Positions 3,042-39,943 of a DNA stretch of 64,000 nucleotides are shown one piece after another (position 1 is the stretch's first letter; each line of letters starts with the position of its first letter). The translations under genes and the position numbers were made by a program. The notes under the pieces were generated by a model. The model saw only the letters and a program-made list of their open reading frames with translations, did not search any database and was not told where the DNA came from. The DNA is from Deltaproteobacteria bacterium (GTDB taxonomy: Bacteria > Myxococcota_A > UBA796 > UBA9615): positions 4,550 through 68,549 of the forward strand of contig JAGSHC010000005.1 in assembly GCA_023954745.1 (NCBI GenBank), read 5' to 3'.

Positions 3042-3140
3042 GGCTGCCTAGAGAACCTCGCCGCGCGGGACCCGCGCGCCCGGCCGATCCGGTCGGTACC
3101 AGGGGGGCGGCCCTTTGCACCCGCCCCAAGGAGAGAGCCC

Positions 3141-3650
3141 ATGCGCCGTACGTTGCTTCTGATCACGCTGACCCTGTCCCTCCTCGCGCTGCCCTCCATG
3201 GCGAGCGCCCAGACGATGAAGCTCGGCGTCGTCGACTTCCAGGCTGCCCTCAACGATGTCGAAGAGGGCAAGAAGGCCCGCAAGGTCCTCGAGACCCGCT
3301 TCGAAGAGAAGCGCATGGGGCTCGAAGCTCGACGGACCGAGCTGGAGACGATGCGGGAGAACCTCGAGGCCCAGAAGGCCCTGCTCAGCGAAGACGCGCT
3401 GCGCGGCAAGGAGGCTGAGTTCAACACCCTCGCGGTGGAGTTCCAGCAGGATATGGTCGAGGCCCAGCAGGAGATGGCGCTGATGGAGCAGGAGCTCACC
3501 GGCGGCATCCTCGAGAAGCTGCTCAACGTGGCTCAGGCCATCGGCAAGGAGCAGGGCTACACGCTCATCGTCGAGGCGCAGGCCGTGGTCTTCGCCGACG
3601 ACAGCCTGGACATCACGAGCCAGGTCATCGCGCGCTTCAACACGAAGTAG
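3141..3650 (+). CDS. skp: Periplasmic chaperone Skp/OmpH
   Basis: 169 aa. Signal peptide ...LPSMASAQ, a coiled-coil-rich E/K/Q sequence of the OmpH family, and a position immediately 3' of bamA. Confidence 0.8.
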   Translation: MRRTLLLITLTLSLLALPSMASAQTMKLGVVDFQAALNDVEEGKKARKVLETRFEEKRMGLEARRTELETMRENLEAQKALLSEDALRGKEAEFNTLAVEFQQDMVEAQQEMALMEQELTGGILEKLLNVAQAIGKEQGYTLIVEAQAVVFADDSLDITSQVIARFNTK

Positions 3651-3674: not shown

Positions 3675-4145
3675 GTGACCGAACACTCGACTCCCGCAGT
3701 GGATCCCCGAGGGGTCCTCGCACTGCTACCGCACCGGTATCCCTTCCTGCTCGTCGACCGCGTCGAGACCTGGGAGAAGGACGCCAAGATCGTCGCCACG
3801 AAGAACGTCACCTGGAACGAGCCCTACTTCACGGGCCACTTCCCCGGTGACCCCGTGATGCCGGGCGTCCTTCAGGTCGAGGCCCTCGCCCAGGCGGCGG
3901 CCCTGCTCGGCATGCTGAGCAAGCCGGAGCTGACCGAGAAGGGTGGCGGCGTGCTGCTGATGGGCCTCGACAAGGTGCGCTTTCGGCGCAAGGTCGTACC
4001 GGGCGACGTGCTCACCCTCACCGTCGAGGTGACTCGTCAGCGTGGCGACATCTGGCGGGTCAAGGGCGCAGCGACCGTGAGCGGCGAGCGGGCGGCCGAG
4101 GCCGACATCATGGCGACGTTCGTCGGTCCCGAAGCGATCGGCTGA
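3675..4145 (+). CDS. fabZ: 3-hydroxyacyl-ACP dehydratase FabZ
   Basis: Hot-dog fold motifs LLPHRYPFLLVDRV and HFPGDPVMPGVL; 156 aa. Confidence 0.9.
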   Translation: MTEHSTPAVDPRGVLALLPHRYPFLLVDRVETWEKDAKIVATKNVTWNEPYFTGHFPGDPVMPGVLQVEALAQAAALLGMLSKPELTEKGGGVLLMGLDKVRFRRKVVPGDVLTLTVEVTRQRGDIWRVKGAATVSGERAAEADIMATFVGPEAIG

Positions 4146-4151
4146 GCCCCC

Positions 4152-5234
4152 GTGAGCACGCTGTTGCTCAGCGCCGGCGAGCGCAGTGGCGACCTGCTCG
4201 GCGGGGCCGTGCTCCGCTCGCTCCTTCAGCTCCAGCCTGACCTCAGCGTCACCGGCGTCGCTGGGCCGGCGATGCGGGCGGCTGGTCGCGACAGGCTGCA
4301 ACCCTTCGCCGACATCGATCAACTCTCAGGGGCTGGGCTCGTCGAGTTGGTCCCACGCCTTCCTTCCATCCTGGGGGTGCGGACGCTTCTGCGCGAGGCC
4401 ATCGAGCTTGGGCAGCCTCGGGCGGCGGTCCTCATCGACGCTCCCGATCTGCACCTCCCTCTGCTTGCGCGGGCGCGGCAGGCGGGCGTCCGAGCCATTC
4501 AGCTGGTGGCACCGCAGTTCTGGGCATGGAGGCCGGGGCGGGCTCGACGTCTCGCCGAGGGAGCCGACTGCGTTCTGTGCCTCTTCCGCTTCGAAACCCA
4601 GCGCCTCGAAGAGGTGGGGGCACGCGCCGTCTGGGTGGGACACCCCGTGGTCGAGCGGGCGGCTGATGCCCGCGCGGGGCGCAGGCAGGGGCGACGGCGC
4701 CTGGTGCTCTTGCCGGGGTCCCGGGCCCACGAACAGGCGCGACACGCCGAGGCGTTCGTCGAGGCGGCAAAGGAAGCGACCCGAGGACTGGACGTGCAAG
4801 TCGTGCTCTCATGGCCCTCGAAGCGTCCGTCTCCACCCGGGGTCGAGACGAGTGACGAAGAAGGAATCGCCCTGCTCGCCGGAGCAGACGCTGCCCTCGT
4901 CGCACCCGGTACCGCCACCCTGGAGGCCGCGATGGTGGATTGCCCGACGGTCGTTGCCGGTGCCCTGCATCCGGCGAGTGCCTTCGTCGCCCGCCGGCTC
5001 CTGCAGGTGGACCATGTGGCGCTGCCCAATCTCTTGCTCGGCACGCGTCGGGTGCCCGAAGTCCTCCAGGACCTCAGCGCACATCGCCTCGCTCCCGTGT
5101 TGAGGCGTGCCTTGGACCCGGAGGCGAGGCTCCAAGCCCGCGGGCTCCGAGAGGAACTGGCTGAGGTTCTCGGCCCCCCGGGGTTCGGCGATCGAGCGGC
5201 GCGGGCGATTCTCGAGAACTTGGAGATGGCGTGA
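4152..5234 (+). CDS. lpxB: Lipid-A-disaccharide synthase LpxB
   Basis: N-terminal SAGERSGDLLGGAVL motif of the GT19 LpxB family; ~360 aa; position after fabZ. Confidence 0.85.
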   Translation: MSTLLLSAGERSGDLLGGAVLRSLLQLQPDLSVTGVAGPAMRAAGRDRLQPFADIDQLSGAGLVELVPRLPSILGVRTLLREAIELGQPRAAVLIDAPDLHLPLLARARQAGVRAIQLVAPQFWAWRPGRARRLAEGADCVLCLFRFETQRLEEVGARAVWVGHPVVERAADARAGRRQGRRRLVLLPGSRAHEQARHAEAFVEAAKEATRGLDVQVVLSWPSKRPSPPGVETSDEEGIALLAGADAALVAPGTATLEAAMVDCPTVVAGALHPASAFVARRLLQVDHVALPNLLLGTRRVPEVLQDLSAHRLAPVLRRALDPEARLQARGLREELAEVLGPPGFGDRAARAILENLEMA

Positions 5235-12000: not shown

Positions 12001-12032
12001 CGAGCCCGCTCCGATTCGTCGGGGCGGGCTCG
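12001..12032. terminator. GC-rich hairpin (9-bp perfect stem CGAGCCCGC/GCGGGCTCG, 14-nt loop) between convergent genes
   Basis: The inverted repeat is read directly from the sequence. It lies 25 nt after the plus-strand stop and 5 nt after the minus-strand stop. There is no T-tract, which is common in high-GC genomes. Confidence 0.35.
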
Positions 12033-12037
12033 TCGCT

Positions 12038-12538
12038 TCATGGGTCCGAGCGCCGCCAGGCCCACCACGCAAGGGGGACCAGGATCGGCCACGCGAAGAA
12101 GCCCACGTCGGAGTCGAACCAGCCGAGCTCGAGGGGCCGCATCGAGAAAGGGAACAGGTACCGGTAGGAGGGCCGGACATGCCACTGCATCACGTCGAGG
12201 AGGAGATGCGCTACGCCTCCCCCGAGCAGGAGGGCCGCGAGCCGTCGCCTGGGAACTCCATCGAGGAGGAACCTGGGGAGGCCGGCCGCGAGGGCGGTCA
12301 CCACGAACAGTAAACCCAGGGGCAGGTGCAACGCTCCAAACCCGGTCACGACCCAGTCCAGATCGACGCCTTGGGACACGGCGATGGGCTGGATGGTGCG
12401 GGAAATCGAGATGGCCGGGACCCGACTGACGATGTCGGGGAGCACTCCTCCGAAGACGAAGACCAGGAGTTCACGGCGTCGGAGACGGCCGGCCGGCAGC
12501 GCGACGTTGAGCAGCGTGTGGGTGAGCAGGTCAGGCAT
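12038..12538 (-). CDS. Membrane-bound metal-dependent hydrolase, YdjM/DUF457-like
   Basis: Starts MPDLLTHTLLNVAL, matching the MDxLTHxLLG signature of YdjM-like proteins. It has several TM helices. The start overlaps the upstream stop (ATGCCTGA). Confidence 0.5.
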   Translation of the reverse strand: MPDLLTHTLLNVALPAGRLRRRELLVFVFGGVLPDIVSRVPAISISRTIQPIAVSQGVDLDWVVTGFGALHLPLGLLFVVTALAAGLPRFLLDGVPRRRLAALLLGGGVAHLLLDVMQWHVRPSYRYLFPFSMRPLELGWFDSDVGFFAWPILVPLAWWAWRRSDP

Positions 12539-12971
12539 GGGAGGGCCGATGGCGCCACCGGCGCAGAACCCAGAACCCCAGAGCCAGGAGCCATGCCCCG
12601 AGCATCGCGATTCCCGTGACCTCCTTGAACCGGCGGTAGGGGTGTTCCTTGACCAGCTCTGGCACGACGACGAGGCCGCCGCCGTGGTAGCCGACAACCG
12701 AGATGATCGTGCCAGGGGAGGGGAGTGGCTCGTCGGGGAGCCAGGGGGTGACCTGCACGGGCCCCATCCAGCTTCGAAGGGACACGGTGTCGCCCTCTGC
12801 GGCGACGACCCTGGTGAACCCGAGATAGAGCTCGCGACCCTCGCAGGAGGCCGGGCGCGCCGCGCACTCGGCCAGGGACACCGATCGCGCGTCGATGGCC
12901 CGACCAAACAGACCGACGAACAGGAGGGCGCAAAGGACCGAGACGAGGGCGAGTCCGTGGCGCGGGGTCAT
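12531..12971 (-). CDS. Two-TM membrane protein, DUF3592-like
   Basis: An N-terminal TM (LALVSVLCALLFVGLF), a ~90-aa middle domain and a C-terminal TM (GIAMLGAWLLALGFWVL). It sits 2 nt downstream of the rhomboid gene. Confidence 0.4.
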   Translation of the reverse strand: MTPRHGLALVSVLCALLFVGLFGRAIDARSVSLAECAARPASCEGRELYLGFTRVVAAEGDTVSLRSWMGPVQVTPWLPDEPLPSPGTIISVVGYHGGGLVVVPELVKEHPYRRFKEVTGIAMLGAWLLALGFWVLRRWRHRPSHA

Positions 12972-12972
12972 G

Positions 12973-13716
12973 TCAGTGGTAGATCGGCCCGTCGTCGCCG
13001 ACGACCCGAAGGTGCGACGGCCGCTTCGGTTTCGGGTCCCGCCGCACGAGCGGCCGGCTCCCGTCGTCTCCGAACAACCTCAAGATCACCCACCCGAGCA
13101 GCAGCCCGATGAGGTGCGCCTCGTGGCTGACTCCGGGGCTCGGGAACCCAAGCTCCAGTCCCACTGCCATCGGGATCAGCCAGATGGCGTCGAACTCAAA
13201 GGGGATGAAGAGCAGGTTGATCGGCCGCTTGGGAAAGGTCAGCGCGAACACCGCCATGACGGTGTAGACCGCGCCCGATGCACCAAGGGACCGGGACCCC
13301 CAGACGAGAAAGGGAAGGTCCCAGCCGGTCAGGTGGAGGATGCCCTCGAGCGCTACTTGAACCAAGCCGCCGGCCACGCCAGAGCCCATATACAGCCAGA
13401 GGAAACGCTTGTACCCCCAGCGCTGCGCGATGGTCGACCCAAACATCCAGAGGATGAAGAGGTTCCCAGCCAGATGCCCAAACTCCGAGTGGAGGAACAG
13501 GCGCGTCAGAGGTTGCCAGAGCATTCCTCGGAAGAACTGCGTGCTCTGAAGCGCCCCGTACTCCTCGATGAAGGTCGTCCCGCCTCCGATGCCGATCACT
13601 CGCTGGAGCACAAAGACGGCAGCAGTGGCGATGAGCAGATGCTTGATCACCTGGGGGGTGGCGGTGGGCCCAAACCGGAATTGGGCACCGCCTTGCTGGC
13701 CACCGGAGCGACTCAT
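12973..13716 (-). CDS. Rhomboid family intramembrane serine protease (active)
   Basis: TM2 WQPLTRLFLHSEFGHLAGNLF, catalytic GASGAVY (GxSG) and HEAHLIGLLLG (catalytic His). The C-terminal tail is ...DDGPIYH. Confidence 0.8.
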   Translation of the reverse strand: MSRSGGQQGGAQFRFGPTATPQVIKHLLIATAAVFVLQRVIGIGGGTTFIEEYGALQSTQFFRGMLWQPLTRLFLHSEFGHLAGNLFILWMFGSTIAQRWGYKRFLWLYMGSGVAGGLVQVALEGILHLTGWDLPFLVWGSRSLGASGAVYTVMAVFALTFPKRPINLLFIPFEFDAIWLIPMAVGLELGFPSPGVSHEAHLIGLLLGWVILRLFGDDGSRPLVRRDPKPKRPSHLRVVGDDGPIYH

Positions 13717-13743
13717 GAACCACCTCCAGTGAGTGGCGCCAAC

Positions 13744-14580
13744 TCAGTGATAGATCGGGCCATCTGACCCTCCCTTCACGGTGTCCTCGACGGCGCGAAG
13801 AAGGCGGTCACCCTTCGCTCGGCGGGCGCGCCTCCGGGGGTCGAGTCGGTCGCGATAGCGCCAGAAGAGCCAGCCGCCAGCCATGCCTCCCAGCTCGTAG
13901 CCGCCGACTCCCGGTGCTGCTCCGAAGGGGACGAACATGCCCAGCGTGCGGCCGACGACGAGGAACGCCACTCCCACGGCGATCCACTTGAGCTTGACGG
14001 GCAAGACCATGAAGAAGCTCACGAATGCATCGGGCGTAAGCGAGCAATTCACAACAATGATCGCGAGCACGACTGCGCCGAAGCCGTAGTGGTATCCGGG
14101 GGGCTGCTGGATGAAGCCAAAGAGGGCCGCGCCCACGAGGGAGCCCACCGTCGCGGCCACCCACAGCTCCAGGAACCGCCTTCGCCCCAGGAACCGTTCG
14201 ACGGTGTGGCCGAAGAAGCCGAGCCCAAAGAACCCCAGGACGTACCCCCCGAGCCCCCAGGGGGGGTAGAGCAGCGGCCCCGTGACGAGCTGCCACCAGC
14301 GGAAGCCGACGCCCATGGGGGGGCCGCCTCCCCCAGGCGCGCTCAGGGCGAGCAGGTTGGCCAGCGGGACCCGGGTGCCGGCGATGCTGGGAGCGAACAG
14401 CGGTGCGGCGTCCGTGGGAATCAGCGAGATCACCCAGCCGATGGCCCAGAGCGCGCCATAGAACAACAGGATGCTCCGCCCCAGATCCGTGAACTGGAGT
14501 CGAAAGCTGCCACTACGGGGAAGCGCTGCGGGGGTTGCCGCCATCGTCTTGACCATGACCTCGAAGACTCCCCTTGACAA
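13744..14580 (-). CDS. Rhomboid-like membrane protein, probably a catalytically inactive pseudo-rhomboid paralog
   Basis: A polytopic membrane protein related to the adjacent rhomboid. The GxSG serine is replaced (GFGAVVL) and no TM6 His is recognisable. It has the same C-terminal ...SDGPIYH tail. Confidence 0.55.
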   Translation of the reverse strand: MSRGVFEVMVKTMAATPAALPRSGSFRLQFTDLGRSILLFYGALWAIGWVISLIPTDAAPLFAPSIAGTRVPLANLLALSAPGGGGPPMGVGFRWWQLVTGPLLYPPWGLGGYVLGFFGLGFFGHTVERFLGRRRFLELWVAATVGSLVGAALFGFIQQPPGYHYGFGAVVLAIIVVNCSLTPDAFVSFFMVLPVKLKWIAVGVAFLVVGRTLGMFVPFGAAPGVGGYELGGMAGGWLFWRYRDRLDPRRRARRAKGDRLLRAVEDTVKGGSDGPIYH

Positions 14581-14583
14581 TAC

Positions 14584-14607
14584 CTGTACATCCGTTCATT
14601 ACTGAAC
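14584..14607. promoter_or_regulatory. Putative LexA operator (SOS box) in the divergent lexA / rhomboid-operon promoter region
   Basis: CTGTACATCCGTTCATT matches the Myxococcus-type LexA box CTRHAMRYBYGTTCAGS (recalled from memory) at 15 of 17 positions. It overlaps a perfect inverted repeat GTTCA-N4-TGAAC (14594-14607). It lies ~55 nt upstream of the lexA start. Confidence 0.5.
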
Positions 14608-14656
14608 AAACGTGTAGACCCAGCGACGCCCGCTGGGATCGCGGAAGGAGCACCCC

Positions 14657-15334
14657 ATGAAGGGCTTGTCGTCGAGGCAGAGAGAGATCCTGGAGTACAT
14701 GCACGAGCGGCTGGTCGAGGATCAGGTGCTCCCGTCGTACCGCGAGATTGGTGACGCCATGGGCATCAAGTCCACAAATGGTGTGTCCGACCACGTCAAG
14801 GCCCTGGAACGAAAGGGGTATGTCTCGCGCCGTGGAGGCGGGGGCAGGGGAGCGCTTGCTCGGGCGCTGACCCTGACGGAGCAGGCACTCCTCGAACTCG
14901 GCATCACGGCAAACGAGCCCGACCCGATCCTCACGGGGGACGTGGTCCAGATCGGGGTGTACGGCCAGGTGGCGGCTGGGCAGCCCGTCCTCGCGGTGGA
15001 GAACCGTGAAGAGACTCTGTTCGTCGACTCGTGCATGGTGCCCGGCGGTGGTCAGGTCTTCGCGCTCCGCGTCTCCGGAGAGTCGATGATCAACGCGGGC
15101 ATCCTCCCGGGCGACTATCTCTTCATCCGCAAGCAGCGCACAGTCCGCAACGGGGAGATCGCGGTGGTCGTGATCGACGGGGACGCCACCGTGAAGACCT
15201 TCTTCCGAGAGGGAGACCGGATCCGCCTGCAGCCCGAGAACGACACGATGGAGCCGATCTACGTGGCGGCGTCCGAGTTCCGGGATGTGCAGGTCATGGG
15301 GGTTGTGTGCGGCGTCTATCGGAAGATGCACTGA
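14657..15334 (+). CDS. lexA: LexA repressor
   Basis: An N-terminal winged HTH, the AG cleavage site (VAAGQP), and an S24 peptidase domain with GESM (Ser) and VVVIDGDATVKTF (Lys). Confidence 0.9.
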   Translation: MKGLSSRQREILEYMHERLVEDQVLPSYREIGDAMGIKSTNGVSDHVKALERKGYVSRRGGGGRGALARALTLTEQALLELGITANEPDPILTGDVVQIGVYGQVAAGQPVLAVENREETLFVDSCMVPGGGQVFALRVSGESMINAGILPGDYLFIRKQRTVRNGEIAVVVIDGDATVKTFFREGDRIRLQPENDTMEPIYVAASEFRDVQVMGVVCGVYRKMH

Positions 15335-15407: not shown

Positions 15408-15483
15408 GGGGGATTAGCTCAGCTGGGAGAGCGCAGCGTTCGCAACGCTGAGGTCAGGGGTTCGATCCCCCTATCCTCCACCA
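15408..15483 (+). tRNA. tRNA-Ala (anticodon CGC)
   Basis: I folded the cloverleaf by hand. The acceptor stem GGGGGAT/ATCCTCC has a G3:U70 pair, which is the alanine identity element. The D-arm is GCTC/GAGC, the anticodon loop is TTCGCAA, the T-loop is TTCGATC, and the 3' CCA is encoded. Confidence 0.9.
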
Positions 15484-29792: not shown

Positions 29793-29865
29793 ACTCGTTC
29801 TCGTTGCCTTCGAAGAGTACCAGTGTTCACGCGACCGACGGAAAGCCCGCCGGTGCGCGATCGAG

Positions 29866-30780
29866 CTAGAAGAGCTCGCCCTTCGCGGCTCGTACGATGA
29901 TGCCGCCGAACAGCGTGAGCAAGACCGCACCGACAATGAAGAGCAGCGGCATGATCATCTTGACCGGTGCCTCGCCCGCGAGCTTCTCGGCGCGCTGGCT
30001 CCGCTTGAGGCGGATCGCCTGGGCCTGAATCCGCAGGATGTTCGTCAGAGGAGTACCCATCTGCTCAGCCTGGACCACGGAACTCACCAGGCCTGAGACG
30101 TAGTCCGATGGGATGCGGTCCTTGAGATTGATCAGGGCCTCACGCCGGGTGGTGCCCATCTTCACTTCCTGAAGCACGTACCGCATCTCCTCCACGAGGG
30201 GGCTGTCCGTGGAGTCCTTGTTGACGATGCGCTCGAGCGAACTGTTGAAGTCGAGACCTGCGCCGACGGACAGCGCGAGCACGTCGAGCATGTACGGCAG
30301 GTCCTTGTTGATGGACGTGATCCGCGTCATCACCTGCTCGTCGAGGTACATCACGGGGAAGTAGGCGCCGAACATCGCCGCGACCATGCACAGCGGGATG
30401 CGGGGGCTGCCGGTGACGCTGGTGTTGAAGAAGAACGCCAGTCCAAAGAAGCTCAAGGCGCTCAGGACGCCGAAGGCGAGGTACTCGTCGGGGGTGAAGC
30501 CCCCCATGTAGCCCGCCCGGGCCAGCCGATCCCGCAGGCCGTTGCGCAGATTCGTGATGGGGAGCAGCTCGCCCCAGAACGTGAAGATCTTCAGCGTGCT
30601 GATGAGGATGCGGTAGATGGGCGACTGCGCCATCAACTGCCGGCGCTTGTTCATCAGGTACCCGCGCTCGGGCACCGTGCCCCGATACTCCTCGTCCGGG
30701 AAGAACCCGAGACCGAAGAGGAACACCGCACCAATGGCCAGGAGGCCAGCGACGATGCTCAGCAGGGTGCTTGTGGCCAT
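29866..30780 (-). CDS. TadC-like inner-membrane platform protein (T2SS F family)
   Basis: ~304 aa polytopic membrane protein with a GspF-like cytoplasmic domain, positioned next to tadB. Confidence 0.7.
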   Translation of the reverse strand: MATSTLLSIVAGLLAIGAVFLFGLGFFPDEEYRGTVPERGYLMNKRRQLMAQSPIYRILISTLKIFTFWGELLPITNLRNGLRDRLARAGYMGGFTPDEYLAFGVLSALSFFGLAFFFNTSVTGSPRIPLCMVAAMFGAYFPVMYLDEQVMTRITSINKDLPYMLDVLALSVGAGLDFNSSLERIVNKDSTDSPLVEEMRYVLQEVKMGTTRREALINLKDRIPSDYVSGLVSSVVQAEQMGTPLTNILRIQAQAIRLKRSQRAEKLAGEAPVKMIMPLLFIVGAVLLTLFGGIIVRAAKGELF

Positions 30781-30793
30781 CGACCTGGCTCTC

Positions 30794-31651
30794 CTAGACG
30801 TCCACCGAGACGATCTTGCGAATCATGAAGATCCCGACAATCTCGAAGAGGGCGATGAAGAAGAGGATGATCCAGCCGATGGGGTCCTCCCAGAGGGGCG
30901 AGACCATGAGCGGGTCGACCTTGTAGATGAGCACCGCCATGCCGACGGGCAGCGACCCGAGGACCCAGGCCTGCATGCGGCCCTGAGCGGTCATCGTCTC
31001 GATCTTGTCCTCGAGGCGGCGGATGTCCCGAATCGCCTCGGCGGTGTCCTCGAACACCTGGGGCAAGTTGCCACCGGCGACACGCGCGACCTGCACCGAC
31101 GTGATCACGAGGTCGAGGTTCTTGCTGCGGACCCGCTCGCCCATGTTGTTCATGGCTTCATCGAGCGTCAGGCCCAGCTTGTGCTCCTTGAGCATCAAGC
31201 CGAACTCCTGGGCGATGGGCGGCGCGGTGTTGTCCACGAGGATGCCGATGGCCTGCGGCAGGGTGAGGCCGGCGCGCAGAGAGTTCGACATGGAGATGAG
31301 CGCGTCGGGGATCTGATCTTCGAGCCGCTCCAGGCGCTGTCGCTTCGCCCGGGCGAGGCCGAGCCACGGGAACAGCCCCACCAGAATCGAGACGAGCACG
31401 CCGTTGGCCGGCCCGAGCAGGTAGCTCACGAAGATGAACAAGACCGTCGTGATCGCGATGTGCGTGTAGAAGTACTTCTTCGGGTCGGTGCGCGAGTAGA
31501 TCGCATCCAGCGCCCGGTGCAGCCGCTCCAGATAGGAGCGCTCGAAGCGCTTCCAGCCCGTGATCAGCTCGGGGCCGTTGAGCCAGGCGAGCAGAAACAC
31601 AATCCCGCCAATGGCGAGCCCGATGACGGTGACGATGAGGGACGCGTCCAT
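30794..31651 (-). CDS. TadB-like inner-membrane platform protein
   Basis: ~285 aa with an N-terminal TM, a cytoplasmic GspF-like domain and C-terminal TMs. It has a TAATG overlap with the upstream ATPase gene. Confidence 0.7.
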   Translation of the reverse strand: MDASLIVTVIGLAIGGIVFLLAWLNGPELITGWKRFERSYLERLHRALDAIYSRTDPKKYFYTHIAITTVLFIFVSYLLGPANGVLVSILVGLFPWLGLARAKRQRLERLEDQIPDALISMSNSLRAGLTLPQAIGILVDNTAPPIAQEFGLMLKEHKLGLTLDEAMNNMGERVRSKNLDLVITSVQVARVAGGNLPQVFEDTAEAIRDIRRLEDKIETMTAQGRMQAWVLGSLPVGMAVLIYKVDPLMVSPLWEDPIGWIILFFIALFEIVGIFMIRKIVSVDV

Positions 31652-33528
31652 TAGATGAAGCTCCCGTCGGCGATGATGCCGGAGTTGATGAGGTCCGGGA
31701 TGAAGCTCGGGATGTACCCGGTGAGCACCATTTCCCCGACGATCTTCCCGTTGTCATCGATGCCGCGCTGCTGGAACTTGAAGATGTCCTCGAGCCGAAG
31801 CCGCCCGTCGTCATCGAGGCCCACGCACTCGGTGACATGGGTCACCCGGCGGGTGCCGTCCGAGAAGCGCGACTGCTGCACCACCACATGAATGGCGGCG
31901 GCGATCTGCTCGCGGATTGCCTTTACCGGCAGGTCCATTCCCGCCATGAGCACCATGGTCTCGAGGCGGCTCATCATGTCGGTGGGGGTGTTCGCGTGGC
32001 CCGTAGTGAGGGAGCCGTCGTGACCGGTGTTCATGGCCTGGAGCATGTCCAGGGCCTCTCCCCCGCGGCACTCACCCACGACGATGCGGTCGGGGCGCAT
32101 GCGCAAGGAGTTCTTCACGAGGTCGCGGATCTCGTAGGCCCCCTTCCCTTCGAGGTTGGCGGGTCGGGTCTCGAGGCTGACCACATGGTCCTGAGGCAGT
32201 CGCAGCTCCGCGGCGTCCTCGATGGTGACGATGCGCTCCTTGTTGGGAATGAAGCTGCTCAGGCAGTTGAGCAGTGTCGTCTTCCCGGAGCCGGTGCCGC
32301 CAGAGATGATGATGTTCTTGTGTCCGAGTACGCACTTCTCGAGGAAGCTCGCAATCTGCTGGGTCACCGAGCCGAACCCCACCAAGTCCTGCATGGTGAG
32401 GGACTTCTTGCCGAACTTCCGGATCGTGATGCAGGGGCCCTTGATGGCCAGGGGCGGGATGATCGCGTTGACGCGCGAGCCGTCCTTGAGGCGGGCGTCC
32501 ACTAGCGGTGAACTCTCGTCGATGCGGCGCCCCAGGGGCGTGATGATGCGCTCGATGACCGCCAGGACCGCTTCGTGGCTCGTGAAGGTCTTCCCGGTGA
32601 ACTCGATGTTCCCCGCGCGCTCCACGTAGATCTGGTCCTTGTTGACGACCATGATCTCCGTGATGGAGTCGTCGTCGAGGAAGTCCTCGAGGGGGCCGAG
32701 GCCGAGGGCCTCGTTGAGGACCTCTTTGATGAGCAGCTCGCGGTCGAGGTCGGGCTCAATGTCCGCTTCGAGCTCGGCGATGATGTCGAAGAGGAGGTTC
32801 CGCGCACGCTCGCGAAGGTCCTCTTCGGCCACCTTGTCCATGTCGAGAGTCTTGAGGTCCAGGTACTGGAGCAGGCGGCGGTGGACGCGCCGCTTCAGGT
32901 CGACGGGAGCGGAACGAGCTCCCATCCAGTGGCCCGCGATCTGAGGGCCGTCTGCGTGGGGCTGGTGTCCAGCTGCGACCGGCGCCTGGCCCTGATGCAG
33001 GACGAGGGCCCCGTCGGCGTGGGCCTGCTGCTCGTAGTACTCGGCGGGATACTGCTGTTGCTGCTGGGCGTAGGCCTGGTCGTAGCCCTGCTGCTGCACC
33101 GTCGCCTGGTGGGCGGCCGCTCCGGAGTCGGCGGGAACCTGGCCGTGGGCCTGCTGCTGATAGTACTCCGCCGGATACTCGCCCTGGCCGGCCGCCGCCT
33201 GGGCCCGGTTGTACTCGTCCCATGCCTGGTGAAGCTGCGCTTCGGTGTAGACCGAGAGCACGACGTTGCCGATGCCCACGCGGTCACCCACGTTGAGGAT
33301 CTGCTTGCCGAACACCCGCTCGCCGTTGACGAACGTTCCGTTGGTGGACCGGTCTGTGAGGGTCACGGACTCACCGTTCACGAGGAACTCGGCGTGGTAA
33401 CGCGAGACCTCCATGTAGGGGAGGACGAGTTCGTTGCCGCCCTCACGCCCCGCGCGGATGTGGTCCGTGTCGAAGTCCGACTGGACCTCCCGCTGGCTCT
33501 CCGGATCCCGGTAGACGATGCGGATCAA
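31651..33528 (-). CDS. FHA domain :: CpaF/TadA ATPase fusion with a Gln/Tyr-rich linker
   Basis: An N-terminal FHA (NELVLPYMEVSRYHAEFLVNGESVTLTDRSTNGTFVNGERV), ~90 aa of Q/Y/A low complexity, then a full CpaF core (GGTGSGKTT, IVTIEDAAEL, GHDGSLTTGHA). Confidence 0.85.
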   Translation of the reverse strand: MIRIVYRDPESQREVQSDFDTDHIRAGREGGNELVLPYMEVSRYHAEFLVNGESVTLTDRSTNGTFVNGERVFGKQILNVGDRVGIGNVVLSVYTEAQLHQAWDEYNRAQAAAGQGEYPAEYYQQQAHGQVPADSGAAAHQATVQQQGYDQAYAQQQQQYPAEYYEQQAHADGALVLHQGQAPVAAGHQPHADGPQIAGHWMGARSAPVDLKRRVHRRLLQYLDLKTLDMDKVAEEDLRERARNLLFDIIAELEADIEPDLDRELLIKEVLNEALGLGPLEDFLDDDSITEIMVVNKDQIYVERAGNIEFTGKTFTSHEAVLAVIERIITPLGRRIDESSPLVDARLKDGSRVNAIIPPLAIKGPCITIRKFGKKSLTMQDLVGFGSVTQQIASFLEKCVLGHKNIIISGGTGSGKTTLLNCLSSFIPNKERIVTIEDAAELRLPQDHVVSLETRPANLEGKGAYEIRDLVKNSLRMRPDRIVVGECRGGEALDMLQAMNTGHDGSLTTGHANTPTDMMSRLETMVLMAGMDLPVKAIREQIAAAIHVVVQQSRFSDGTRRVTHVTECVGLDDDGRLRLEDIFKFQQRGIDDNGKIVGEMVLTGYIPSFIPDLINSGIIADGSFI

Positions 33529-33535
33529 GCGTCAC

Positions 33536-34789
33536 CTACCACTTCGTCTCCGCCGCATCGTAGATGTCGAGCGTCTCGCGGATCTGCTTGCGCATCTGGC
33601 GACGGTCGGCGTCCAGGAGGACCGGGGTAAGTACGATGATCCCGTCGGTGTCGCCCTTCTGCCAGGAACGGCTGCCGAAGAGCACGCCGATGCCGGGAAT
33701 CTGGGAGAGGCCGGGGAGGCCGGTGATCTGACGCCCGTTGTCGCGTCGGAGGAAGCCGCTGAGCGCGAAGCTCTCGCCCTCGCGGAGCTGCACGTGCGCC
33801 GTGTGGTTCTGGCGGTTGATGGAGGGCACCACGCCGCCGAGCTCGAGCTCGCCGACCGTGCTGAACTCCACCGTGATCTTGAGGTCGATGTCCCCGTCGT
33901 CGTCGATGATGGGGAGCGCCTTCACGAGCAGACCCACGTCCCGCTCGAGGAACGTGCCCACGCCGGTGCCCTGAGCCACCGTCGAGAAGATCAGGGTCTT
34001 GCCGCGCTGGAAGGTCACCTCTTCGCCCGACACCGTCGTGAAGAAGTCCTTGTCGAGCACCCGGCGCACATCCGTGGTGGCGGTGAAGTCGTAGAGGTCG
34101 TCCGGGCGACGGAGGACGTTGCCGGCCTGATCGGTGATGTTTCCGATGCCGAACTGCACGTAGCTCAGGGTGTCCAGAACCAGCGAGATGGGCCCGTTGC
34201 CTGACCAGTCGATGCCGATGTCGTGGTCGCGGTTGCGGTTCACCTCGAGCACCTGGAAGTGCAGCTGGATCTGGGCCTTCCTGACGATGTCCCGCTCGTC
34301 GAGGATCACGAGGCTGTACACGTCCTTGTTGTTGGACGCGACGATCTCCTGCACCCGGGCGAAGTCGTCCCTCCGCTTGACCAGACCGTCGATGACCACC
34401 CTCTCGCCCGAGGTGAGGACCTCGACGCCCGGAATCTCCAGAAGGAGGGTCTCCACGTCGCGGCGCAGCCGCTCCACGTCGCCCAGGACGGTGATGTCGT
34501 AGTCGGTCTCGCCGACCTGCAGGCTGGAGTAGCCGGGACGCAGGGCGAAGATGACGATCTTGTCGCCGTCCTCGTGGCGCTTGGCCTCGATCACCTGGGG
34601 GTTGCCGACGCTGACGGTCTTGATGCGGCCGAGGAAGATCGTGATCGACTCGCCGACCCGCAAGACCTTCTCGATGCCAGCGTGCGCCTCCCCAGGCGTC
34701 GCCAACTGCACCGTCAGTGCCATCAACACGGCGATGAGCACCAGCCCGAGCCGCCGCGCTCCTCCTCCGAACTCGTTGTTCGCCTTCAA
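33536..34789 (-). CDS. Secretin CpaC/RcpA
   Basis: A signal peptide, N-domains and a C-terminal secretin domain (GLPGLSQIPGIGVLFGS...GIIVLTPVLLD). Confidence 0.8.
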   Translation of the reverse strand: MKANNEFGGGARRLGLVLIAVLMALTVQLATPGEAHAGIEKVLRVGESITIFLGRIKTVSVGNPQVIEAKRHEDGDKIVIFALRPGYSSLQVGETDYDITVLGDVERLRRDVETLLLEIPGVEVLTSGERVVIDGLVKRRDDFARVQEIVASNNKDVYSLVILDERDIVRKAQIQLHFQVLEVNRNRDHDIGIDWSGNGPISLVLDTLSYVQFGIGNITDQAGNVLRRPDDLYDFTATTDVRRVLDKDFFTTVSGEEVTFQRGKTLIFSTVAQGTGVGTFLERDVGLLVKALPIIDDDGDIDLKITVEFSTVGELELGGVVPSINRQNHTAHVQLREGESFALSGFLRRDNGRQITGLPGLSQIPGIGVLFGSRSWQKGDTDGIIVLTPVLLDADRRQMRKQIRETLDIYDAAETKW

Positions 34790-34818
34790 CTGCTGCTCCG
34801 CTCCCCGTGCACCCGCGC

Positions 34819-35679
34819 TCAGCGCCGGCGGCCTCCGGGCGTCAGGATGGTGATTCCCTCGTCGCGCTTCTTCTGGATTCTACGACGTTCCTTCGGCTGG
34901 AAGATGTCCGCGAAGTTCTTGCCACTGAGTTCCATCTCAGTGTTCACGTCTTCCTCGTTCCGCATGGTGATCGAAAGCTCGCCCCGGTCCTGGGCAAACA
35001 CGAGGAGTTCAGCCTCCTCCGGGGTGACGAGCACCGTCACGGTGTCGATCCTCACCCTACCCCCGCGGGCGTTTCCGCCCCCGGTGTCCGCGATGGCGCG
35101 GCCGGTGCCGAGCTGGGCGCCGACGGCGAGTACGGTCACGTTCTGAAGGAGGGTGACCGTCTCCACGTCCCCTTCCCCGGGCTTCTGGAAGGTGCCGAGA
35201 ATGTCGACGTGGTCCTTCGGCCGAAGCAGCCCACCGAAGCTGGTGACGCGGTCCACCGGCAGAGCCAGCGCACGCATCTTCTCCGAGATCACCCGGGAGA
35301 GCTTCGCCTCGCTCTGGGTCGAGGCGAGGTCGGTTGTGAGGATGGGGTCTCCCCGCTTGACGCTGTACGAGGTGGTCTGGCCGATGACGTCATCCGCCAG
35401 GCCCTTCTGCAGGTGGCGCGGCGGTAGGTAGTTCTGCGGGTACTCACGGGTCATGAGCATCGAGCGCTCCAGGACCGTGAAGGCAGGGACATCCTCCTTG
35501 GCGACCAGGATCGGCACCCGCTTGCCGGCGACACCGAGCTCTTCCTTGAGGTTCGCCTTGTAGAGCTGCATCAGCACGACTGCGAGCAGCGCGAGGATTC
35601 CGGAGAACAGCAGGACGATCTTACGATTCACGGTTGCCCTTCCGAGCGGGGGGAGCTGCCCCGCCTCGTCTCGCCGCAT
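34819..35679 (-). CDS. CpaB/RcpC Flp pilus assembly protein (SAF domain)
   Basis: An N-terminal TM, a SAF-like region and a C-terminal CpaB-type domain. It is adjacent to the secretin. Confidence 0.65.
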   Translation of the reverse strand: MRRDEAGQLPPLGRATVNRKIVLLFSGILALLAVVLMQLYKANLKEELGVAGKRVPILVAKEDVPAFTVLERSMLMTREYPQNYLPPRHLQKGLADDVIGQTTSYSVKRGDPILTTDLASTQSEAKLSRVISEKMRALALPVDRVTSFGGLLRPKDHVDILGTFQKPGEGDVETVTLLQNVTVLAVGAQLGTGRAIADTGGGNARGGRVRIDTVTVLVTPEEAELLVFAQDRGELSITMRNEEDVNTEMELSGKNFADIFQPKERRRIQKKRDEGITILTPGGRRR

Positions 35680-35844
35680 TGAAGAAAACCGGGGCTACCG
35701 GGCTTCCTCAATGCGTGGGCGAGTCTACAACAAAGCCTACCCAGGGGTGGCCGCGGGACCGGACACAGGGTTGGCACGTTGTGAGGAAGGAGCCGCTGTA
35801 CGCGCTGTGCGCGGGTTCGTGCCCTGGTTGCAGGGCCTACCAAA

Positions 35845-36858
35845 TCAGGTGCGGTGGTAGACGACGACCGTGCTCGTGACGCTGTTCTCAGCGGACTCTT
35901 CGAGGGAGATGTACGCCTCGCGCCCGTCCTTGAGGAACAGGAACGTGTTTGGCGAGTCCATCTGCTCTTCCATCTTCTCGCGGCCGGCCATGAAGTTCTG
36001 GGAGAGGCCCCAGCCCTCGAGCTCCATCGCCTGCAGGAAGTGATTCTCGGCCTGGTCGATGGACGAAGCGCCCCGGTAGATGTGGATGGAGTAGTCGGCG
36101 TCGCCCAACTCCTGCCCGAACGTGATCAGCCGGAAGCTTCCGCGAGGGCGCGGAATGTCCTCGATGTCGTAGCCGACCCCATCCTGACGCCGCTTCGGCC
36201 GCATGTTCTTGCGGTTGAAGTTTTCGTCGGGCCACACGTTCATGTACTGAGTGCCGCCGTTGGCGTCGTCGGCGAAGGCCACCACGATCTTCGCGTCGCC
36301 CAGGGCAGAGACCTCACCAGTCTTGTCGAAGTTCTCGAAGCGGGTCTTCATGTCGGCAGACCACTCGGCCTCGCCTTCCTTGCCCGTGACGATGGTCGCG
36401 AAGGCGCCCCACTTCTCGCCATCCAGGCGCACGTAGCGCTGGTTGATGAGCTTCTCGGTCTCTTCGATGCGGCGGGCGTGCTCGGCCCGGTCCTTGGCGT
36501 TCTTGACCGTCTTCAGCAGCCGGTCCTTGGTGGCCTGGTCAGCCACCTCGCGGACGTCACCCTTGTACATGTTCTCGTAGTAGTCGAGCAGTGTGTCGAT
36601 GGGCTTGCTGGACCGGTACTGCGTGTAATAGAGGGTGTTGCCGTTGAGGTACACCTCGTTGACGTCCCCGTCCTTCACGCGGGTCTTCATGTAGGCCGGA
36701 ACGCCCTCGAGGGCGCGTCCCAGGTCCATGTACACCTCGGCGGCGGCGGTGGGCGGGCGCGGGGTCATGAAGTGGCCGAAGCCGAACACGCCCACGACGA
36801 GCACGCAGATGAGGACGACGCGGAAGCCGCGAGCGGACAGAGTGCGGAAGACGTTCAT
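35845..36858 (-). CDS. Hypothetical membrane-anchored periplasmic protein with K/E/D/N/Y-rich composition
   Basis: An N-terminal TM (VVLICVLVVGVFGFGHF) and a ~300-aa soluble domain with amino-acid usage unlike the neighbouring genes. I recognise no family. Confidence 0.4.
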   Translation of the reverse strand: MNVFRTLSARGFRVVLICVLVVGVFGFGHFMTPRPPTAAAEVYMDLGRALEGVPAYMKTRVKDGDVNEVYLNGNTLYYTQYRSSKPIDTLLDYYENMYKGDVREVADQATKDRLLKTVKNAKDRAEHARRIEETEKLINQRYVRLDGEKWGAFATIVTGKEGEAEWSADMKTRFENFDKTGEVSALGDAKIVVAFADDANGGTQYMNVWPDENFNRKNMRPKRRQDGVGYDIEDIPRPRGSFRLITFGQELGDADYSIHIYRGASSIDQAENHFLQAMELEGWGLSQNFMAGREKMEEQMDSPNTFLFLKDGREAYISLEESAENSVTSTVVVYHRT

Positions 36859-36871
36859 CTCTGGACTCCTC

Positions 36872-37468
36872 TCAGTACGAAGAGAGCGCGACGGCGGACC
36901 ACGCCATCAACGCGCCCTTGACGGCCATGATCTGGAGGTCGCCATAGGTCTGCTTCTTGTGCCACGTGCCACCCGACACGAAGTGCCGACTCCTCACGTG
37001 GGTGCCGCCAGGCAGCGTGTTGTCGAGGATGGAGTTGGGGGCATAGGTCGCGCCCACCTCGAAACCTCTCGTCTGGCTGGCGAACGAGAGCATGTTGCTC
37101 AGCGACGAGGCCATGTTCAGCGGGCCCGAGCTGGGGAAGCTCGAGTTCGCGGAGCTGGGGTTGGCCGCGGGGTCGAAGGGCGCCAACTCGACGTAGGTCG
37201 GGTTGTGGTCCGTCATCGGGTAGTACGCCTGGGCCCGGCTCATGATCTGGCTGTCTTCGAGGTCCGTCTCGGCGACGCTGGCGGTGGCGGTGGCCATGTA
37301 GCGCGCGGCCATGTGGCAAGTGAGCTTGAGCTCGTATGCCTTACCGAACCACAGGATGCCCTCGATCATCGCGAGCAGGACGAAGACCCAGATGACGAAC
37401 TCCGCCATCGCCTGTCCTCGCTGGCCCTTGCCATCCCGTGCGTCTCGGATTCGTTGAATGGAAAGCAT
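36872..37468 (-). CDS. TadE-like pseudopilin
   Basis: An N-terminal GQAMAEFVIWVFVLLAMIEG TadE motif (G-x4-EF). Confidence 0.6.
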   Translation of the reverse strand: MLSIQRIRDARDGKGQRGQAMAEFVIWVFVLLAMIEGILWFGKAYELKLTCHMAARYMATATASVAETDLEDSQIMSRAQAYYPMTDHNPTYVELAPFDPAANPSSANSSFPSSGPLNMASSLSNMLSFASQTRGFEVGATYAPNSILDNTLPGGTHVRSRHFVSGGTWHKKQTYGDLQIMAVKGALMAWSAVALSSY

Positions 37469-37477
37469 GTCCGTCTC

Positions 37478-38965
37478 CTAGTGCGCGATGACTGCGTCGA
37501 CGCCCGAGCCCGAGAGCGCGGTGAGGGAACCAACCAGGCCGCCCACGCCGCCGGGGGCGCCCTCGCTGGTGCTGCCGGCGCCCGGAATCCAGCCAGCGGC
37601 TGCGCTCGCGGTGTCCGAGCCCATGGTCACGGGGGCGAGGTGCGTGCGCCAGTGGGGGCTGAAGAGTCCGCCGTCACTGTGCGGGCTGTAGATCTGGGCC
37701 TGGGCGACAGTGATCATCCCGACCGTGTCGCCGTAGGTGTTCTGGAACACATCGGGGATGAACTTCGCGGCGATGTCGTCCGGCGTCTTGTAGGCGAATC
37801 CGTAGTAGTCACGCCGCTCTTCCCAGTCCTCCGCGAGGATGAACGGTTGGACGTTGGGGTTGCCCGAGTCCAGGAAGGCGAAGAAGGCTCCGAGGTAATA
37901 GAACGGGTTCGGGATGGAGAAGTTCTCGTCGTCGCACCAGAGGCACCACCCGGGGGCGTCCACCTCGAAGTTGACGGAGCTGGGCCCGAAGCTGCCGCCG
38001 CACATCACCGCGTACCTCGCCCACACCGCCATGATGAACATGACGTTGGTGAAGTGATACGGCGCCTTGCTGGCCCAGAATGCGTGATACGGAATCTGCA
38101 TCTCGCCCCAGAGCGGACCGCCCAGGCCCACCGCGGCGAGGATGTCCGACGCGATGTCCCGGAAGTCCCCCGCGTAGGAGAAGCCACTGATCTCGTCGAC
38201 AGCGGCTGCGAGCGACCCTCCCAGGCTGTACTGGATCTCGTTGTAGCCGCCAGCGTTCTCGCCGCTCAGCGTGCAGGAGCAGAGGTCTTCGAGCTCGCCC
38301 TGCTCTTCGGGGATCGAGGGCGGATACATGATCCCGAAGGCCGCGCCGTTCTTCATGGCGAGGCGTGCGCTCTCGATCTCGGCGATCCAGGGGAAGAGGT
38401 TGTCGACGTTCTCTTCGACGTCCGACAGGGTCTCCATGATGTCCCAGATGAAGTCCTCGTCGTCCTCTGTCTCCATGAGCACGCCCGGCAGCTGCAGGGT
38501 GTCGATGAAGGCGTCCACGGGAATCTGGAACTGGCCGGTCATGGCGGCGACTGCGGCCCAGAAGGCCTCGATGGCCGGGCTGAGGAGCAGCGCCGTCAAG
38601 GCAGTCCAGAACACGGCCTTGAGGTAGATCTCCTGGGCGAGGAGCATCGCCATGAAGATGTTCATCATGGAGTTGAGGTTCATCGCCCGGGCGATCCAGG
38701 TGCTCCCGGAGAGCACGGCTGCATCCGCCGCGGACTGCGCCTGCATCTTGTCGTGCAGCAGCGCCCCGCTGTTGATCACCATGAAGGTGAAGCAAGCGAG
38801 CAGGAACAGGATCAGCGCGATGTAGACGATGGACTGGCCGCCCTCGTCCCGGTGCACGTCGCTCAGTCGCGTGCGGGCACGCTCGAGCAGGCTGTGAAGT
38901 GATCGGGTCACGTCCATCTCCCTACATGTCCCAGAAGCCGCTGATCGGCGGGTCGCCGGTCTCAC
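37478..38965 (-). CDS. TadG-like protein (Tad_N pilus-assembly N-terminal domain)
   Basis: GGQSIVYIALILFLLACFTFMVINSGALLHDKMQAQSAADAAVLSGSTW resembles the TadG-like N-domain, followed by a large ~400-aa C-terminal domain. The start may be the internal ATG (MDVTRS) at ~38917. Confidence 0.5.
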   Translation of the reverse strand: MRPATRRSAASGTCREMDVTRSLHSLLERARTRLSDVHRDEGGQSIVYIALILFLLACFTFMVINSGALLHDKMQAQSAADAAVLSGSTWIARAMNLNSMMNIFMAMLLAQEIYLKAVFWTALTALLLSPAIEAFWAAVAAMTGQFQIPVDAFIDTLQLPGVLMETEDDEDFIWDIMETLSDVEENVDNLFPWIAEIESARLAMKNGAAFGIMYPPSIPEEQGELEDLCSCTLSGENAGGYNEIQYSLGGSLAAAVDEISGFSYAGDFRDIASDILAAVGLGGPLWGEMQIPYHAFWASKAPYHFTNVMFIMAVWARYAVMCGGSFGPSSVNFEVDAPGWCLWCDDENFSIPNPFYYLGAFFAFLDSGNPNVQPFILAEDWEERRDYYGFAYKTPDDIAAKFIPDVFQNTYGDTVGMITVAQAQIYSPHSDGGLFSPHWRTHLAPVTMGSDTASAAAGWIPGAGSTSEGAPGGVGGLVGSLTALSGSGVDAVIAH

Positions 38966-39929: not shown

Positions 39930-39943
39930 CTCTGCGCTCCGTC

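Follow-up and report, generated by a model that had tools for sequence, protein, structure and literature searches.

Among the closest described systems, the LexA box of Myxococcus xanthus is the asymmetric motif CTRHAMRYBYGTTCAGS, which has been validated by EMSA on lexA and recA2 (PMC9705874); for the box and for the autoregulation of lexA, that paper cites Campoy et al. 2003. Tandem LexA sites are common at lexA promoters and are found in E. coli, in Alpha- and Betaproteobacteria, in Firmicutes and in Actinobacteria (PMC4951493). The genes that diverge from lexA in B. subtilis (yneA) and S. aureus (sosA) are LexA-controlled and encode small single-pass division inhibitors, part of a type of checkpoint in which membrane proteases later clear the inhibitor. 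In addition, ydjM of E. coli and a YdjM-UDPGP-HlyIII operon of S. aureus are LexA regulon members.

The locus described here lies in a 64-kb window (the whole stretch of 64,000 nucleotides that was analysed) from an uncultured Myxococcota lineage. A first-pass annotation of the window had placed a LexA site in a divergent region next to lexA, and the elements of this region do lie where it put them. From lexA toward the divergent operon they are as follows:

14657-15334, plus strand: lexA, encoding the 225-aa self-cleaving SOS repressor (TIGR00498, Pfam, alignment to E. coli LexA)

14645-14650, plus strand: lexA Shine-Dalgarno sequence AAGGAG, read from the sequence

14601-14617, minus strand: predicted LexA box 2, CTACACGTTTGTTCAGT, with one mismatch to CTRHAMRYBYGTTCAGS; abuts box 1

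about 14597-14603, plus strand: putative lexA -10 element, the non-canonical CATTACT

14584-14600, plus strand: predicted LexA box 1, CTGTACATCCGTTCATT, with two mismatches to the same consensus; inside the lexA promoter spacer

14574-14579, plus strand: lexA promoter -35 hexamer TTGACA (6/6), read from the sequence; invariant in alignment A7 and also present in L002

14575-14580, minus strand: putative operon -35 hexamer TTGTCA (5/6); lies opposite the lexA -35, with which it overlaps

14552-14557, minus strand: putative operon -10 hexamer CATGGT, separated by 17 nt from the -35 and followed after 7 nt by ATG 14544

The lexA product scores 192.8 bits against the TIGR00498 equivalog model (cut-off 110.95) and contains the Pfam domains LexA_DNA_bind and Peptidase_S24. 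When aligned to E. coli LexA structures, it retains VAAG/QP as the cleavage site, together with the catalytic residues Ser (in SGESM) and Lys (in TVKTF), and so it has the winged-helix N-terminal domain, S24 domain, Ala-Gly cleavage site and Ser/Lys dyad of a LexA repressor. Outside its own MAG clade, the best protein matches are Firmicutes LexA at ~40% identity. Besides lexA, neither recA, uvrA, recN, dnaE2 nor any other canonical SOS gene is found within the 64-kb window.

The site first proposed was a single box of the Myxococcus type, the 17-mer at 14584-14600. This match stands, but a second and better box abuts it on the opposite strand, and together the two span 34 bp (14584-14617) between the -35 hexamer TTGACA and the lexA Shine-Dalgarno sequence, an interval that also holds the putative -10 and transcription start. 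A perfect GTTCA-N4-TGAAC palindrome had been noted as well; it is indeed present at 14594-14607, where GTTCATTACTGAAC occurs once in the window versus 0.00 times expected in shuffles, but it is merely the junction between box 1 and box 2.

When the M. xanthus consensus is allowed up to two mismatches, exactly two matches are found in the 64-kb window, and they are the two that abut one another. Because about 1.4 such matches are expected by chance in a window of this size, the count alone is no proof, and this expectation is what an explanation by chance, or by the target of some other regulator, can draw on. The short core GAAC-N4-GTTC points the same way, as with one mismatch it is no commoner than chance (24 matches versus 22.5 expected in the window) and is uninformative. 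The evidence for LexA boxes therefore comes from their co-location in the lexA promoter and from an independent test, using a matrix trained solely on the lexA promoters of distant relatives. This matrix places sites of the region at ranks 1 to 3 of the 127,968 window positions, with 21.9, 17.5 and 13.6 bits; box 2 is the top site (21.9 bits) and box 1, read on the minus strand, scores 17.5 bits. The best score across 40 shuffles was 17.4 bits, and no site elsewhere in the window exceeds ~12 bits. Against a chance match or a different regulator stand the abutment of both matches within the lexA promoter, the first ranks in the independent matrix, a strong phylogenetic footprint, and the recurrence of the 17-mer unit, in rearranged orientation, upstream of lexA in every relative examined; we consider such an origin very improbable. 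These comparisons identify the 17-mer at 14584-14600 as a true LexA box, one of the Myxococcus / Gram-positive type.

The relatives bear on both the footprint and the binding unit. The block CTTGACAACACCTG[TC]ACATCCGTTCATTACTGAACA..CGT.TAG is kept in 10 loci with pseudo-rhomboid proteins of 47-80% identity, and its flanks diverge, among them the sequence toward the lexA Shine-Dalgarno. One or two boxes lie upstream of lexA in L001-L008, L081-L090, L092 and L093, and L094 has one weak site there (12.9 bits). The orientation of the box pair changes by clade: it is tail to tail here, head to head in L004, L005 and L008, and direct in L006 and L093. Because the boxes upstream of lexA vary in this way, the 17-mer itself would be the unit that is bound.

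A strict sigma-70 scan called no promoter on either strand of the lexA/operon intergenic region, so the promoter assignments rest on conservation and the lexA -10 is offered as a tentative one. An Rfam search of the intergenic region matched no family, and a hairpin in the 5'-UTR of lexA, compared across relatives, shows no better folding than shuffled controls.

On the operon side, the pseudo-rhomboid gene starts at ATG 14544, in agreement with a comparison of protein N-terminal lengths and with the NCBI 266-aa gene call. The intergenic region is therefore 112 bp long and not 76 bp, the length first given with TTG 14580 as the start; that codon, which falls within the conserved -35 hexamer, was rejected. 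The arrangement TTGTCA-17-CATGGT-7-ATG occurs once in the window versus 0.17 times expected by chance. In the alignments, its spacer is variable in sequence and invariant in length at 17 nt, the gap to the ATG is 6-7 nt, and the -10 hexamer is conserved even though it lies out of frame in L081 and has the form CATCGT in L085. This pattern implies that the operon mRNA would be leaderless, starting at 14544. The boxes would then fall at about -40 to -73 of the operon promoter, adjacent to its core with no overlap; box 1 lies 3 bp from the putative -35 and has its centre near -48. We also considered the argument that any operon promoter must overlap the boxes, since box 1 and the start codon are a mere 27-39 bp apart; this was dropped, because the conserved TTGTCA-17-CATGGT-7-ATG of alignment A7 fits that space if the mRNA is leaderless.

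From this geometry, we propose that 14584-14617 is an autoregulatory lexA operator made of two tail-to-tail 17-bp boxes of the CTNNAC-N4-GTTCAGT type and that any effect on the operon is secondary, a reading to which we give a probability of about 0.5. One LexA dimer would sit on each box. Because the boxes fill the lexA promoter spacer, the -10 region and the start (box 2 extends over the last part of the -10 region and the putative start site), bound LexA would keep RNA polymerase out; DNA damage would lift this block at the lexA promoter, as LexA would then cleave itself under stimulation by RecA. The operon would be served by its own back-to-back promoter, giving the leaderless mRNA. Since the boxes sit just upstream of that promoter, LexA would have, if anything, a secondary and modulatory effect on it, one that may simply have followed when this clade lost the gene between lexA and the operon, with no dedicated SOS design behind it. 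A separate consideration runs against a view of autoregulation only: bound LexA could hinder the contacts of sigma region 4 or of the alpha-CTD and in this way repress the operon.

The operon itself comprises four genes for membrane proteins, listed here in the order of transcription:

13744-14544, minus strand: pseudo-rhomboid, 266 aa; rhomboid fold in which the catalytic Ser and His and the TM2 motif H..N are missing; tail ..SDGPIYH

12973-13716, minus strand: predicted active rhomboid intramembrane serine protease, 247 aa; motifs H..GN, GASG and AHL; tail ..GDDGPIYH

12531-12971, minus strand: membrane protein of 146 aa, a TM helix, an OB-fold beta-barrel and a second TM helix; third gene of the operon

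12038-12538, minus strand: YdjM-family-like membrane protein of 166 aa; 8-nt overlap at its start with the gene before it

The naming of the first two as pseudo-rhomboid and rhomboid in the first-pass annotation is borne out by PF01694, by motif alignments and by the fold. The active rhomboid matches PF01694 (E=1.2e-25), its GHLAGN, GASG and AHL motifs are invariant in an alignment of 12 orthologues, and in a profile match to H. influenzae GlpG (2nr9) the motif columns are aligned. Throughout the pseudo-rhomboid family, the Ser column of the alignment holds G, A or P and the His column E or W; because the Ser-His dyad is missing while the fold remains that of a rhomboid, we classify this protein as a pseudoprotease. 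The family is lineage-restricted (~34 proteins among 5.8 billion) and carries a distinctive C-terminal DDGPxYH tail, and a metagenome scan with a distant pseudo-rhomboid alignment returned only one irrelevant low-GC locus (L091).

Labels for the other two products fared less well. The 146-aa protein belongs to no Pfam family, and the DUF3592 once suggested for it is rejected at the sequence level: 12 members of the protein's family gave no Pfam match at E<=10, and 20 further homologues carry no precomputed Pfam domain. The OB domain of the 146-aa protein is probably periplasmic. The YdjM-like label holds in part: the window's 166-aa protein reaches 26 bits against PF04307 (E=7.5e-6), below the gathering score of 29, but the orthologue in L004 passes with 31.8 bits and that in L093 has a precomputed PF04307 match. 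On the minus strand at 12001-12032, between convergent genes and 6 nt past the last stop codon of the operon, there is a GC-rich hairpin (centroid -26.1 kcal/mol, z = -2.0) that is terminator-like and has no U-run.

Whether this membrane operon shares in the SOS response depends on what the operator does on its far side. Two LexA dimers could repress lexA and the operon together, which would make the membrane module damage-inducible. In support of such a bidirectional operator, the boxes lie 3 bp from the operon -35 over a relatively AT-rich stretch suited to the alpha-CTD, a proximity that matters given the weak operon -10, CATGGT, and the spacing between boxes and operon promoter is strictly constant in the 10 closest loci. 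Precedent also favours it: in Gram-positive bacteria, SOS control is typical of genes transcribed divergently from lexA, the examples of yneA, sosA and their like show that such SOS genes can encode membrane proteins, and YdjM homologues belong to LexA regulons in two distant phyla, represented by E. coli, as the first-pass annotation had stated and the literature agrees, and by S. aureus. However, the boxes do not overlap the putative core promoter of the operon, and the arrangement is not kept in relatives. In the L002/L003 subclade, about 80-95 bp separate box and operon start codon, and a different candidate operon promoter lies ~45 bp from the boxes. In six sister-lineage loci (L004-6, L008, L092 and L094), a gene that we call X sits between lexA and the orthologous operon, and none of these six has a LexA box at the operon's 5' end. 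A LexA tree groups the fused lexA/operon architecture in a single derived clade, and the arrangement with gene X between appears to be the ancestral one. Outside this lineage, the text and supplement on the LexA/UV regulon of M. xanthus mention neither rhomboid nor ydjM, and a literature search for rhomboids together with LexA or SOS gave only incidental co-occurrences, leaving the link absent from the literature searched. Because the boxes lie off the core promoter and the operons of sister lineages have no box, SOS induction of the rhomboid module is neither forced by the geometry nor conserved; we regard it, and the bidirectional operator behind it, as possible but somewhat doubtful. LexA control of the rhomboid operon is a testable prediction and not a finding.

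The back-to-back promoters allow the opposite outcome to be imagined, in which LexA silences the stronger lexA promoter and so frees the operon, with the SOS response raising lexA and lowering the operon. What speaks for such competition is positional only: TTGACA (14574-79, plus strand) and TTGTCA (14575-80, minus strand) have 5 bp in common, and the polymerase footprints at the two putative promoters would overlap by ~45 bp. Because the -35 hexamers overlap on opposite strands, two polymerases could not bind simultaneously. On the other hand, for LexA at about -40 to -73, hindrance of the operon promoter is no less probable than help, both start sites are putative, and no precedent was found in the literature searched. 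We therefore think promoter competition quite unlikely, and an autoregulatory lexA operator with a secondary effect on the operon remains our preferred reading.

A further feature of the locus concerns gene order. The pseudo-rhomboid gene adjoins lexA in every locus examined (~20), and this persists even in L092, where both outer flanks differ. Because of this adjacency, the pseudo-rhomboid with its conserved acidic DDGPxYH tail might, in this uncultured lineage of Myxococcota, work specifically with the LexA circuit. It would then be central to a module anchored in the membrane, to which the periplasmic OB protein, the YdjM-like hydrolase and perhaps the active rhomboid belong, and through which the response to DNA damage is tied to the envelope or to cell division, or LexA itself is modulated; we put this forward as an unlikely, speculative reading. 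The adjacency holds with or without a shared operator.

These results have implications at two levels. The operator proposed here would be a lexA autoregulatory operator of the textbook type in an uncultured lineage, it would widen the range of the LexA motif of the Myxococcus / Gram-positive type to include a deep clade of Myxococcota MAGs, and the reshuffling of its 17-bp unit between clades bears on models of LexA motif evolution. If the operon were LexA-controlled, intramembrane proteolysis, with an active and a dead rhomboid, would join the SOS repertoire; LexA control of a YdjM-family protein would gain a third, independent example, and taken together these would suggest that the DNA-damage response has a conserved but unexplained branch in the membrane.

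Comparison with the known systems places the locus among familiar designs and sets it apart from each. Like the ydjM systems of E. coli and S. aureus, it associates a PF04307-type membrane protein genetically with LexA, but there the LexA boxes lie in the gene's own promoter, whereas here the YdjM-like gene is the fourth of an operon and its product has a sub-threshold Pfam score. Compared with iRhom1/2, the Derlins and GlpG, the pseudo-rhomboid of this locus is bacterial, lineage-restricted and furnished with the DDGPxYH tail. As with yneA and sosA, a membrane-protein gene diverges from lexA across a common intergenic region; in contrast to those genes, the first gene here does not encode a small single-pass protein but a polytopic pseudo-rhomboid of 266 aa (the 146-aa TM-OB-TM protein comes from the third gene), and the boxes lie upstream of the putative promoter of that first gene. 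With the M. xanthus box, the sites share an asymmetric 17-bp motif in the lexA promoter, one half of which, GTTCAG, is conserved and the other, CTNNAC, degenerate; they differ in being two abutting inverted predicted boxes, and the LexA of this lineage is not especially close to that of cultured myxobacteria. Finally, as at other tandem-site lexA promoters, the lexA core promoter is covered by two close LexA sites, an arrangement that presumably makes autorepression tight or cooperative, but in this lineage the orientation of the units varies between sister clades.

The LexA protein encoded in the window scores 192.8 bits against the TIGR00498 equivalog (cut-off 111) and contains LexA_DNA_bind and S24 domains. 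Its Ala-Gly cleavage site, Ser and Lys match E. coli LexA structures in alignment, and the protein is a bona fide LexA. Upstream of its gene, the first-pass annotation had flagged a 17-mer resembling a Myxococcus-type LexA box; the consensus for that box is the published M. xanthus SOS box, CTRHAMRYBYGTTCAGS, bound by LexA at lexA and recA2 in EMSA (PMC9705874). Allowing ≤2 mismatches, the consensus has exactly two matches in the 64-kb window, adjoining each other: box 1, the flagged site, is CTGTACATCCGTTCATT at 14584–14600 (+), with two mismatches, and box 2 is CTACACGTTTGTTCAGT at 14601–14617 (−), with one. Because ~1.4 such matches per 64 kb are expected by chance, we built a matrix solely from the lexA-upstream boxes of distant relatives (L004–L008), with none from the window's clade. 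Its three best hits among 127,968 window positions are 14601–17 (21.9 bits), 14583–99 (17.5) and 14584–600 (13.6); the highest score among 40 shuffles was 17.4 bits, and no further site in the window exceeded ~12 bits. The position of both hits in the lexA promoter and the matrix ranking confirm the flagged 17-mer as a predicted LexA box. It had been read as a single site overlapping a GTTCA-N4-TGAAC palindrome; the palindrome is there (14594–14607; one match in the window versus 0.00 expected), but it is the junction of the conserved GTTCA half-sites of a double operator.

The boxes lie between lexA and a divergent operon, in a window of 68% G+C:

12001–12032: strong GC-rich hairpin of 13 bp (centroid −26 kcal/mol, z = −2.0), separating the YdjM-like gene from the convergent 398-aa gene upstream
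12038–12538 (−): gene 4, 166-aa protein, overlapping the preceding gene by 8 nt
12531–12971 (−): gene 3, 146-aa protein, beginning 1 nt past the preceding stop
12973–13716 (−): gene 2, rhomboid, after a 27-nt gap with GGAGG ahead of the gene
13744–14544 (−): gene 1, rhomboid-like protein (pseudo-rhomboid)
14657–15334 (+): lexA
15408–15483 (+): tRNA-Ala(CGC)

The four minus-strand genes are closely packed from 14544 to 12038, and the hairpin beyond them, which has no U-run, is likely a bidirectional terminator. Since the tRNA gene begins 74 nt past the lexA stop codon, lexA appears monocistronic. Elsewhere in the window (~29800–40500 and 49794–55132), ORF translations look like a Tad/Cpa-type pilus-like cluster and two large Ser/Thr-kinase-like genes.

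Gene 2 matches PF01694 (E=1e-25) and has invariant GHLAGN, GASG and AHL motifs that align to H. influenzae GlpG, which upholds its annotation as a rhomboid and makes it an active one; gene 4 appears YdjM-like at the family level. The assignment of gene 3 to DUF3592 is unsupported by sequence, with no Pfam match in 32 members of its family; a structure model (pLDDT 92) instead gives a TM helix, an OB fold and a TM helix, and the OB domain is probably periplasmic because of the basic C-terminus and paired Cys. The two rhomboid paralogues share a C-terminus, ...DDGP[ILVTM][YF]H, with the single copy of the sister lineages (13744–13764 and 12973–12993 in the window; the same in L001–L006, L081–L090, L093 and L094). 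This acidic tail follows hLRVV or FTVIEGG in active and dead rhomboids alike, was found in no other ORF of these loci, and may act in docking or mark the protein for degradation.

A LexA-based scan with one genome per species yielded eight related MAG loci (L001–L008; LexA identity 45–81%), the next-best matches being Firmicutes LexA at ~40%. Contigs of L001, L004, L005 and L006 are titled 'uncultured Rickettsiales bacterium' despite 68–70% G+C and a Myxococcota-type locus, and this label is probably wrong. Among 5.8 billion proteins, the pseudo-rhomboid family numbers just 12 + 22, from sources labelled 'Deltaproteobacteria bacterium' or 'Myxococcota bacterium'; we retrieved genomic contexts for twelve members. 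One box or two lie directly upstream of lexA in all relatives, but their arrangement varies:

Tail-to-tail: the window
Head-to-head: L004, L005, L008, with GTTCAGT adjoining a TAnnnT −10
Direct: L006, L093
Single: L007, L092

This variation argues that the 17-mer, rather than the palindrome, is the predicted binding unit. In L004, short tandem repeats rich in purines (GGTGGAAGTGGAGGTGGAAG...) occupy 4812–4879, just ahead of the boxes; in L092, CCAAGTCCACGGCC recurs between the box and lexA (3950–4010).

Aligning the ten closest loci across the intergenic region revealed an invariant block, CTTGACAACACCTG[TC]ACATCCGTTCATTACTGAACA..CGT.TAG; the ~40 nt from box 2 to the lexA Shine-Dalgarno are unconserved. 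A perfect TTGACA (14574–79, +) ends 4 bp ahead of box 1. Given a 17–18 nt spacer, a non-canonical −10, CATTACT, would fall where the boxes meet, with box 2 over the lexA transcription start, the classical arrangement for autorepression. The TTGACA-N17 geometry is also kept in L002, though the divergent gene there begins 80 nt further off. A strict promoter consensus scan of both strands called no promoter; we infer both start sites, of lexA and of the operon.

An early argument, that 27–39 bp is too short to hold an independent operon promoter, is contradicted by the same alignment. Here GTCATGGTC is kept at the DNA level despite its out-of-frame position in L081 (L085 has the variant GTCATCGTC), exactly 17 unconserved nt from TTGTCA (the lexA −35 region read on the other strand) and 7 nt (6 in L081) from a conserved ATGGCG. 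This pattern is the signature of a leaderless sigma-70-type promoter, with a putative −35 matching at 5/6 positions, a 17-nt spacer and CATGGT (A2, T6), and would place the mRNA 5′ end at 14544. No Shine-Dalgarno precedes that ATG; starting there, the N-terminal length agrees with L002, L003 and L004 (the NCBI gene call is 266 aa). Across the window, TTGTCA-17-CATGGT-ATG is found a single time, against 0.17 expected. The heptamer TTGACAA (14574–14580) offers a −35-like hexamer on each strand (TTGACA/TTGTCA), so the two −35 elements would overlap in a back-to-back promoter pair, and polymerase probably cannot occupy both promoters at once. Relative to the putative operon start, box 1 occupies about −40 to −56 and box 2 about −57 to −73; they adjoin the core promoter without overlap, 3 bp away from the −35.

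In six sister-lineage loci (L004–L006, L008, L092, L094), the homologous operon (pseudo-rhomboid, usually then OB protein and YdjM) diverges not from lexA but from another gene, gene X, which always lies between pseudo-rhomboid and lexA and is missing from the window's clade:

L004 4010–4777 (+)
L005 ~4130–4890
L006 3196–3978
L008 ~3076–3600
L092 4098–4889 (−)
L094 2569–3615 (−)

Its product is conserved and secreted: it begins with a signal peptide, carries an HPF..Y.HR motif and ends in a TM anchor followed by a basic tail. Such type-I membrane topology is classic for rhomboid substrates. Neither Pfam nor NCBIfam has a family that it matches. In these six loci all LexA boxes fall in the gene X–lexA interval, and none was found in the operon 5′ region. 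In the LexA tree, the fused architecture (operon directly divergent from lexA, active rhomboid present) forms a single derived clade, with gene-X lineages around it. Within it, L002 and L003 have ~80–95 bp from box to start codon and a common TGnTAnnnT element that precedes the ATG by ~28 nt and is ~45 bp away from box 1. By these patterns, LexA control does not belong to the conserved features of the operon; its juxtaposition with the operator arose once, through loss of gene X.

The dead rhomboid adjoins lexA in every retrieved context (~20 loci; gene X intervenes in sister lineages), independently of whether active rhomboid, OB protein, YdjM or gene X is present, and even in L092, whose outer flanks are both different (a HAMP kinase and an acetyltransferase). 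Because conservation around the locus extends to the lpxK, glycosyltransferase, bamB-like, yfgM-like, der and era genes, much of this proximity may be inherited synteny; a functional tie to the LexA circuit is possible. A second, independent adjacency, with a rhomboid convergent just downstream of lexA, occurs in three Firmicutes-type MAG loci (uncultured Bacilli/'Tenericutes'/Ca. Pelethosoma) and may be coincidence:

L044 6640–7083 (−)
L070 5761–6189 (−)
L071 2155–2565 (−)

The first-pass interpretation is partly supported. The DNA-damage-inducible rhomboid module that it proposed is a reasonable but unproven prediction, and both promoter geometry and comparative genomics weaken it: the boxes sit beside rather than over the putative core promoter, and sister-lineage operons have no box. 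Three points favour it. LexA regulates YdjM-family genes in E. coli, through tandem boxes, and in S. aureus; in Gram-positive bacteria, lexA-divergent genes encode SOS-controlled membrane checkpoint proteins that membrane proteases later clear; and LexA centred near −48 could plausibly impede polymerase. We rate induction of the operon by the SOS response somewhat below an even chance. The element at 14584–14617 itself is best read as the autoregulatory operator of lexA, ordinary in kind: its motif type is known, and the lineage is new. Tandem LexA sites are known to be widespread at lexA promoters (PMC4951493).
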